The notes under the pieces were generated by a model. The model was not told the DNA's origin, did no database searches, and was given only the letters and a program-made list of their open reading frames with translations. The translations under genes were made by a program, and so were the position numbers. Positions 1 through 1,027 of a stretch of 1,027 nt of DNA are shown piece by piece (position 1 is the first letter of the stretch; every line of letters starts with the position of its first letter). Source of the stretch: Escherichia coli (GTDB lineage Bacteria > Pseudomonadota > Gammaproteobacteria > Enterobacterales > Enterobacteriaceae). The DNA lies in the NCBI RefSeq assembly GCF_003334385.1, contig NZ_QOWN01000134.1. One strand, written 5' to 3'.

Positions 1-1
1 G

Positions 2-1027
2 TACATTCACCAGTCCCTGACGCTGCTGAAGCAGTTCATTCCCCAGCCCCAGCAGACGGTTGAATTCCGTATGCTGACCGTTCATAACCAGCATGGACTG
101 GTACACCTTATTCTGCTCTGCCGCCTGCTGACGAATTAACGCCACACGACGGTCTTCCAGCCCGGCAAGCACATCCTGAATGGACTGCGCTTTTTCCTGC
201 ATCTGTGCCAGACGGGACTGCTCAACGGCAAGCTGCTCTGTTGCCTGAGAAAGCCCTTCCGTTACGGTCTTCACCGATGTCAGATGGTTTATCATGAATC
301 CGTCACCGGTTGTCCAGCCAGGGTTAGCCAGAACATACTGATATCCAGCGATTTTTTCCTGCGGGGATTTCACCCGGCTGGCCTGTTCATCAATCAGCCG
401 GTTCTGCTCTGCCAGCGCCGCCCGTGTTCGTCCTTCATTATCTGAGGCTTCAGGCAAAGACATTGACGGCGTTTTATGCGCGATTTCATCTATCGTCAGT
501 GCATACTGGCGCGCTGACTCCCTGGCCTGCTCCTGATTCTGGTACAGCGTATACCATGCTGCTGCCCCCAGCATCACCAGTCCGGGTACGCCACCAACCA
601 GTCCCAACGCACCAGTCATCAGACGTGAGCCCACCGCCGTTGTACTGTTCAGCGCATTCTGGGCTGCGGTTCTGGCAGCAATATTTCTGTTCAGGCGTTC
701 CTGTGTGGCCGCCAGACGGGCTTCTGCAGCAATCTGCATCTCCGTCCCGCGGGCTGCCGCCACAGCCTGCTGTGCACGGTACACGGCTGCCCTTGCCCGC
801 GCCGTGGCAATCTGCGTCCCCCTGAGCTGTGCTTCCGCCAGTGCCACTTCATTACGTGCTGCCGTCACAAGTCCTGCCGTGGCAGACACCGCTCCGGAGG
901 CCATATTGCCAAAGTACCGGGCAACCCCGACGGCAACCAGCGCCCCCGCTGCTGTTGCCACATTATCAATATTACCGGCAACACCGTTCAGCACGCCGGA
1001 GAGCGTTTTCGTCGCTCCGCTGGCTTC
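2..1027 (-). CDS. Putative phage tail tape measure protein (tail length determinant), internal fragment; CDS continues beyond both window edges (N-terminal side past 1027, C-terminal side past 1)
   Basis: Seen in sequence: hand translation of the reverse complement from 1027 gives 342 sense codons with no stop, so the frame is open end to end. Composition is strongly non-random: Gly/Ala/Val-rich hydrophobic segments at residues ~9-57 (LSGVLNGVAGNIDNVATAAGALVAVGVARYFGNMASGAVSATAGLVTAA) and ~136-162 (LMTGALGLVGGVPGLVMLGAAAWYTLY), with Ala/Arg/Gln/Glu-rich helical stretches between and after them. Codon choice is consistently enterobacterial-like in this frame. Established knowledge: tape measure proteins are long, mostly alpha-helical, low-complexity proteins with Gly-rich hydrophobic segments. 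Inference: the family assignment rests on architecture only, not on a database hit; exact boundaries are unknown. Confidence 0.62.

Follow-up and report, generated by a model that had tools for sequence, protein, structure and literature searches.

An internal stretch of a tape measure gene, very probably from an HK97-type lambdoid prophage of Escherichia coli

In bacteriophage lambda, 32 rings of the tail tube correspond to the 853 residues that make up gpH, the tape measure protein (PMC10721106), and papers on lambda and related phages describe how gpI, gpL and gpJ hold the C-terminal coiled coil of the tape measure in the tip complex. For the portion of such a ruler that lies within the tube, the classical estimate is about 0.15 nm per residue (PMC5099701). 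The tape measure of the Pseudomonas siphophage JBD30 is a trimer in a non-contractile tail, with a proposed transmembrane DNA channel (PMC11445458), and for HK97, work by Cumby et al. (2015), cited in PMC5099701 and PMC10721106, is reported to show that PtsG in the inner membrane and FkpA, a chaperone of the periplasm, are required for genome injection. Much closer to the DNA studied here is phage Lys8385Vzw, obtained from E. coli O103:H11 by mitomycin C induction, plaque-purified and grown on strain WG5; it lysogenised WG5, MG1655 and DH5alpha, yielding stx-positive lysogens, and its tail, by electron microscopy, is long, non-contractile and 188.4 nm in length (PMC6986202, PMC7946995). We analysed a 1,027-nt stretch of E. 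coli DNA (contig NZ_QOWN01000134.1), the whole of which is hereafter called the window, and which lies inside a tape measure gene.

We are confident that the window encodes residues 273–614 of the 1080-amino-acid (aa) tape measure protein, the equivalent of gpH/gp16, of an HK97-type lambdoid temperate siphophage of E. coli, almost certainly resident as a prophage. The apparatus is the non-contractile tail of this type of prophage; the gene and the phage family are already known, and no new biology is involved. To the eye, a tape measure fragment may seem uninformative, yet the type of particle that it belongs to can be assigned via near-identical database relatives.

The gene fills the window (1..1027, minus strand; codons 273–614 of 1080) and runs past both of its ends. 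Minus-strand frame 0, read from position 1027 to 2, is open for 342 of 342 codons, while each of the remaining five is broken by 5 to 19 stops; the longest open reading frame (ORF) on the mechanical list was one of 133 aa, on the antisense strand. The translation matches PHROG 339, ‘tail length tape measure protein’, over profile positions 262–612 of 1123 with an expectation value (E) of 2.6e-115, and maps onto residues 273–614 of the 1080-aa (3,243-nt) tape measure protein of near-identical relatives, for which we used the protein of a sequence type 131 (ST131) strain. A Pfam analysis of a full-length relative, 99.8% identical, located TMP_3 at residues 83–272, Phage_HK97_TLTM (PF06120) at 395–686 (E 7.6e-90) and Tape_meas_lam_C at 862–933; the window stops at residue 614, and its share of PF06120, after conversion of the coordinates, spans 2..661 on the minus strand. 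By family profile (PF06120 and PHROG 339), the protein is therefore an HK97-type tape measure. In comparisons with relatives at 96.6%, 91.9% and 76% DNA identity, codon position 3 of the minus frame takes 24 of 35, 58 of 83 and 175 of 249 substitutions, and synonymous changes outnumber non-synonymous ones by 23:10, 56:23 and 151:49, respectively, indicating that this frame is a translated gene under purifying selection. The window protein consists of 18% Ala, 10% Leu and 9% Gln and is also rich in Gly, the G+C content climbs from 54% to 67% along the window, and no tandem repeats were found in it. The first-pass annotation, made from the letters of the window, had placed it in the interior of a tape-measure-like gene, as the sole open frame and the PHROG 339 match bear out. 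It had also described the window itself as free of flanking genes, attachment sites and regulators; we likewise found no gene start, gene end, att site or regulator within the 1,027 nt.

The experimental anchor for the assignment is Lys8385Vzw, which shares 99.3% DNA identity with the window (seven differences, three of them amino-acid-changing) and has a tape measure protein (gp14) of 1080 aa. From its published tail length we computed 188.4 nm/1080 aa = 0.174 nm per residue, and from that of lambda (150 nm, PMC9022992; 853 aa in gpH) 0.176 nm per residue. The agreement between these values, which by calculation from published measurements conform to a scaling of about 0.15–0.18 nm per residue, indicates that the protein behaves as a length ruler of the lambda kind. 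At this scale, the 342 residues of the window would account for roughly 60 nm of the approximately 188-nm tail, or some 13 rings. Some Lys8385Vzw particles have the tail joined to a second small (~30 nm) capsid-like body, which its authors left unexplained (PMC6986202).

Other long-tailed Shiga toxin (Stx)/lambdoid relatives tell the same story. The window is 96.6–99.8% identical to the corresponding stretch in this group, which comprises Lys8385Vzw gp14, the ‘minor tail protein H’ of phage 2851, the PPompW prophages and WP_000212991 in ST131, all with equal length (1080 aa), position in the gene order and flanking genes. Only point differences separate the window from them, namely a private Leu-to-Pro change at position 363 and one or more synonymous changes.

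Because no identical copy of the window was present in the collections searched, we took its gene context from relatives at up to 99.8% identity. Eleven neighbourhoods were inspected, ten chromosomal and one from a phage genome, at 76% to 99.8% identity to the window; where loci are cited by label below, L001 is strain G1/2, L002 phage Lys8385Vzw, L003 the ST131 relative, L004 O111:H- 11128, L005 O157:H7 Z1826, L009 HK97 and L011 strain LZSFT34. All 11 open with genes for an HNH endonuclease, the small and large terminase subunits (TerS and TerL), major capsid, portal, head-tail connector and head closure proteins, continue with a gp10-like protein, the tail terminator, the major tail subunit, the tail assembly chaperone, protein T and the tape measure, and proceed downstream to M-like, L, K (a C40 peptidase), I, J, usually lom, and then side tail fibre genes. 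In each of them, the tape measure gene directly follows the −1 frameshift chaperone pair and precedes the tail-tip genes; a slippery A-AAA-AAG, correctly phased, closes the G-like gene, and no stop interrupts the −1 frame through the annotated T ORF. PHROG scans of the neighbours identified the major tail protein (PHROG 158, E 1.7e-116), a tail assembly chaperone, a minor tail protein and the tail terminator, and the annotations of the 11 neighbourhoods list neither a sheath nor a baseplate gene. By tblastn with the lambda proteins, the relatives' products are 40–47% (M), 76–94% (L), 85–94% (K), 67–78% (I) and 65–84% (J) identical; lambda head genes and V, G and T gave no match in the relatives. 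This gene order, together with the imaged non-contractile tail of the 99.3%-identical Lys8385Vzw, leads us to assign the window to a siphophage tail, and the same neighbours presumably flank it at its own locus.

Counts across genomes support an association of the window with a complete head and tail module. A 19.4-kb query reaching from TerS to J of the ST131 relative was covered to at least 80% in 1,104 genomes, a number close to the 1,133 records that match the window at 95% identity or above; these figures are counted by genome and not by locus, and hence are supportive rather than exact. Among the records with low coverage of the query, a few have the tail-tip genes alone, and the tape measure gene is missing or distant.

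The relatives also carry the functions of a temperate phage. In the ST131 relative these are an integrase, an excisionase, an exonuclease, dicB, a LexA-family repressor with Cro, replication genes, RusA, the Q antiterminator, tRNA genes and a lysis cassette. The prophage resides at ompW: integrase and excisionase abut this gene, a truncated ompW fragment lies at the far end, and short ompW-derived matches occur at both ends (30 nt at 97% and 43 nt at 86%). The relatives, then, are integrated temperate lambdoid prophages, with an integrase at the attachment site as well as immunity and late regulators.

Comparison with described phages shows where the window region is conserved and where it is not. 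HK97 gp16 (gene H) is 52% identical end to end (1080 vs 1089 aa), with 82% identity in residues 1–272, 37% and indels in the window region, which is the most divergent part, and 50% in the rest. HK97 shares the order major tail, G/G-T pair, H, M, L, K, I and J, and its annotated gp13/gp14 frameshift mirrors the A-AAA-AAG of the relatives. Unlike the relatives seen, HK97 has a moron, gp15, between T and H, and most relatives differ from it in their head genes, with the capsid gene before the portal and a large portal ORF. Lambda gpH (853 aa; PDB 8iyk) plays the same part and has equivalent genes downstream (M, L, K, I and J, 40–94% identical), and the C-terminus of the relatives' tape measure (some 350–375 residues, outside the window) is 26–28% identical to gpH residues 416/477/552–850; the relatives' protein is 227 residues longer than gpH. 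We considered gpH as a direct homologue of the window region and rejected it, since BLASTP gave a best E of 4.3; the region does not belong to the gpH family in the strict sense, and ‘lambda-like’ thus holds for the tail tip and the C-terminus only. Among solved structures, the best match for residues 34–465 is JBD30 gp46 (PDB 8rk3; E 2.7e-27), and the alignment takes in the first 193 window residues. JBD30 is distant, infects another host and has a baseplate instead of a lambda-type tip, and 33 C-terminal residues of its tape measure are all that is resolved in 8rk3.

These neighbourhoods decide among the particles to which a tape measure could belong. Tape measure proteins occur in contractile systems generally, and we asked whether the window could stem from a myophage, an R-type tailocin or an extracellular contractile injection system. 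We give this virtually no credence: the neighbours are a lambda/HK97-type major tail protein (PHROG 158) and the M-L-K-I-J tip genes, none of the 11 contexts has an annotated sheath or baseplate-wedge gene, the tail of a 99.3%-identical relative was imaged as non-contractile, and the best solved relatives are the siphophage tape measures of JBD30 and lambda. F-type pyocins are related to lambda-like tails, and a few E. coli records have only the tail-tip genes of the module, as might be expected of a head-less, F-type tailocin-like particle derived from a lambdoid prophage, that is, tail genes and a lysis cassette without terminase, portal and capsid. Such a particle is very unlikely here, as TerS, TerL, capsid and portal genes stand directly upstream in 11 of 11 contexts, the 1,104 genomes with at least 80% of the TerS-to-J module nearly equal the 1,133 window-match records, and the low-coverage records have no tape measure gene or a distant one. 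A cluster akin to the gene transfer agent (GTA) RcGTA is as implausible as a contractile system, because the relatives possess integrase, excisionase, CI/Cro, replication genes, Q and a lysis cassette, which sets them apart from such clusters, and because Lys8385Vzw packages and transmits its own genome, forming plaques and lysogens. The host, moreover, is E. coli, in which RcGTA-type elements are not known. In favour of a GTA, such elements have siphophage-like tails with a tape measure, and lambda and RcGTA have been compared in their tail tips (PMC10721106). Contractile systems and GTAs are thus effectively excluded, and a head-less tailocin is without support. An idea that we likewise consider very unlikely is that the window locus is a head-less flexible-tail (F-type tailocin-like) or otherwise domesticated derivative of this prophage family, with the Leu-to-Pro change as part of its divergence. 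In a milder version, the fast-diverging central third of the protein would set the inner-membrane and periplasmic host factors used for DNA entry, in line with what is reported on PtsG and FkpA for HK97.

For the first-pass annotation, the kind of particle could not be determined from this window, with prophage tail, tailocin, contractile injection system and GTA all left standing. That judgement is overturned by the Phage_HK97_TLTM family, the 52% identity to HK97 gp16, the Stx-converting and other lambdoid relatives with tape measure genes at 99.3–99.8% DNA identity, the 11 concordant contexts and the imaged tail: the prophage tail is retained, the R-type tailocin, injection system and GTA are excluded, and the head-less F-type tailocin is left as very unlikely. 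Its expectation that neighbouring genes would define the particle was sound, as the neighbourhoods of the relatives supplied a siphophage head and tail module. A cluster of sheath, tube and baseplate genes without head genes, sought in the 11 relatives, did not appear; terminase, portal and capsid are present, and sheath and baseplate genes are not annotated. Integrase, attachment site and cargo were likewise followed in relatives, where an integrase at ompW and, in some cases, effector, stx and porin cargo were found, and the novel system that the annotation had thought possible in the locus gained no support beyond ordinary morons in some relatives.

Several observations weigh against assigning the window to a functional phage of this family, or limit how far the assignment reaches. 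The context argument rests on relatives, and lambdoid phages are mosaic; the best match to the window in the collections searched is 99.8% identical; NCBIfam returned no family for the window fragment; and the window has no detectable BLASTP similarity to lambda gpH. The membrane role discussed below for a hydrophobic segment derives from hydropathy and conservation. In O111:H- 11128, an IS91-family transposase and a small ORF (L004 21053–22864) split the tape measure gene in two, right after the stretch equivalent to the window. TerL is frameshifted in the ST131 relative, J is frameshifted in locus L012, and strain G1/2 has many frameshifts, with several structural genes hit; in the ST131 relative, lom is in addition interrupted by an insertion sequence (IS).

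Such lesions in chromosomal relatives (L001, L003, L004 and L012) suggest that the source prophage may likewise be defective, and that the locus would be a decayed, cryptic prophage with the same siphophage gene that no longer makes particles, its tape measure gene being a relic or on the way to loss. This alternative concerns the state of the element and overlaps with the assignment to an HK97-type prophage; we regard it as a serious possibility, although clearly not the likelier one. The private Leu-to-Pro change, in a presumed helical region, agrees with decay. On the other side, the 342 window codons are uninterrupted, substitutions relative to the relatives are mostly synonymous, and some of the ‘frameshifts’ are a recurrent poly-G state shared with a viable phage, while others may be long-read assembly errors. 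The realistic uncertainty is therefore whether the element is active, rather than which kind of particle it encodes.

Taking the window as part of an HK97-type siphophage tape measure, its mode of action can be proposed from the literature on lambda, HK97, TP901-1, T5 and JBD30. The chaperones G and G-T, encoded upstream, would coat the tape measure protein and keep it soluble, G-T being produced through a −1 ribosomal frameshift. The C-terminal helix of the tape measure would form a trimeric coiled coil docked in the lambda-like tip complex (M, L, K, I, J), and the extended helical trimer would then serve as a template, along which hexamer rings of the major tail protein stack as they displace the chaperones. 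Stacking would end at the N-terminal end of the ruler, where the tail terminator caps the tube. Upon receptor binding, the tape measure would leave the tube and is thought to form or seed a DNA channel across the envelope.

A Gly/Ala/Val/Leu-rich hydrophobic segment, LMTGALGLVGGVPGLVMLGAAAWYTLY, is a candidate for the part that acts at the membrane. It lies at 542..625 on the minus strand (window-protein residues 135–162, approximately 407–434 of the full protein), and its Kyte-Doolittle 19-residue mean peaks at 1.73, like a membrane helix; it is the only stretch of the window that reaches 1.4 or more. Residues 407–450 are 72% identical to HK97 gp16, compared with 37% for the whole window region, forming a conserved island in a divergent centre, and the segment falls within the alignment to the tape measure of JBD30. 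Judging from these sequence features, residues ~407–434 are the best candidate for insertion into the inner membrane towards a DNA conduit, and the poorly conserved flanks may mainly supply length.

The gene marks one of the commonest prophage families of E. coli, found in about one third of complete genomes. The window is present in 1,959 of 5,426 complete E. coli genomes, with a best match of 99.8%; 514 E. coli records match it at 99% identity or more, and 1,133 at 95% or more. Megablast also returned 105 phage records, mostly Stx1a-, Stx2a- and Stx2c-converting phages and ‘PPompW’ prophages, the best at 99.5–99.6% identity. Nine plasmid records matched, most of them of 90 kb to 1.4 Mb and without replicon context, and these probably represent misassigned contigs or pieces of chromosome. 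Long-tailed Shiga-toxin-converting phages belong to the family, as do carriers of type III effector genes, and its recognition aids prophage typing in pathogenic strains.

The private variant lies at position 363 (minus strand), where the window has CCG (Pro) and the relatives CTG (Leu); this is residue 222 of the window protein and about residue 494 of the complete one. The window differs here from each of the four close loci with which it was compared. A 61-nt query centred on it matched 688 complete E. coli records, all at 98.4% identity (one mismatch) and none perfectly, and exact 36–52-nt strings across the site were absent from viral, species-representative genome and metagenome contig collections. 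The variant is either a sequencing error or a rare allele with a proline in a presumed helical stretch.

A recurrent feature of the relatives bears on how their frameshifts should be read. In the portal ORF (L003 13608–16193), every ‘frameshifted’ annotation reflects the same one-base difference in a poly-G tract, at about ORF position 1340–1346 (context TTCAGGGGGGATACTGA), and the same site is seen in L001, L002, L004, L010, L011 and L013. The shorter poly-G state is found in plaque-forming Lys8385Vzw as well, where the portal gene is annotated as two ORFs, which points to slippage or a programmed frameshift at this site, or to phase variation, more than to decay. Repeats of about 162 nt lie in the downstream part of the portal ORF.

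Two sets of matches were rejected as spurious. An antisense ORF of 133 aa, at 424..825 on the plus strand in a stretch of 57–67% G+C, was assigned to no family in PHROG or PADLOC, and substitutions are patterned after the minus-strand frame, so that we discount it as a gene; it is a by-product of high G+C. The marginal PADLOC matches of the window protein to PDC-S06 (E 0.001) and LmuB (E 0.008) have low bit scores, involve coiled-coil-like stretches and are driven by composition. In an Rfam search at a permissive threshold, the window returned only isrG, at 14.3 bits where the gathering score is 100 (E 0.24), as expected by chance, and hence no credible RNA family.

The relatives differ in their cargo. 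A full-length ompC-type porin gene lies between the gpM-like gene and L in several prophages (L001 22968–24131, L006 22960–24123 and L011 14468–15631, and likewise match H110 of the 19.4-kb query) and is absent from this junction in the other prophages of the family; as a moron inside the tail operon, it would give the lysogen an extra porin. In strain LZSFT34, genes for a ClpP-like protease, an Arc-family DNA-binding protein, a YlcI/YnfO protein and an Ant antirepressor lie between L and K (L011 16583–18595), as a further cargo cassette inside the operon for the tail tip. Type III effector genes occur just 3′ of the tail fibre genes (L004 32934–38960, L005 32071–32721, L010 22535–24027 and L013 22782–23773), among them the nleG family, nleH1-2, nleF, espM1, nleC and a HECT-type E3 ligase. 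Lambdoid prophages of enterohaemorrhagic and enteropathogenic E. coli (EHEC/EPEC) are known for this layout, the ‘exchangeable effector locus’. The O157:H7 Z1826 prophage, with a tape measure 96.6% identical, carries Stx2c genes between the Q antiterminator/tRNA genes and the lysis cassette (L005 938–2178), and the family therefore includes toxin-converting phages. Lastly, a terminator-like hairpin followed by a T run (GAACCGCTGAGGCGGTTTTTTT) separates the end of gene T from the start codon of the tape measure in the ST131 relative (L003 19140–19170), and in HK97 a putative terminator is annotated at the corresponding position, behind the gp15 moron (L009 8398–8422); the L003 hairpin may be the scar of a moron or a Q-antiterminated terminator.

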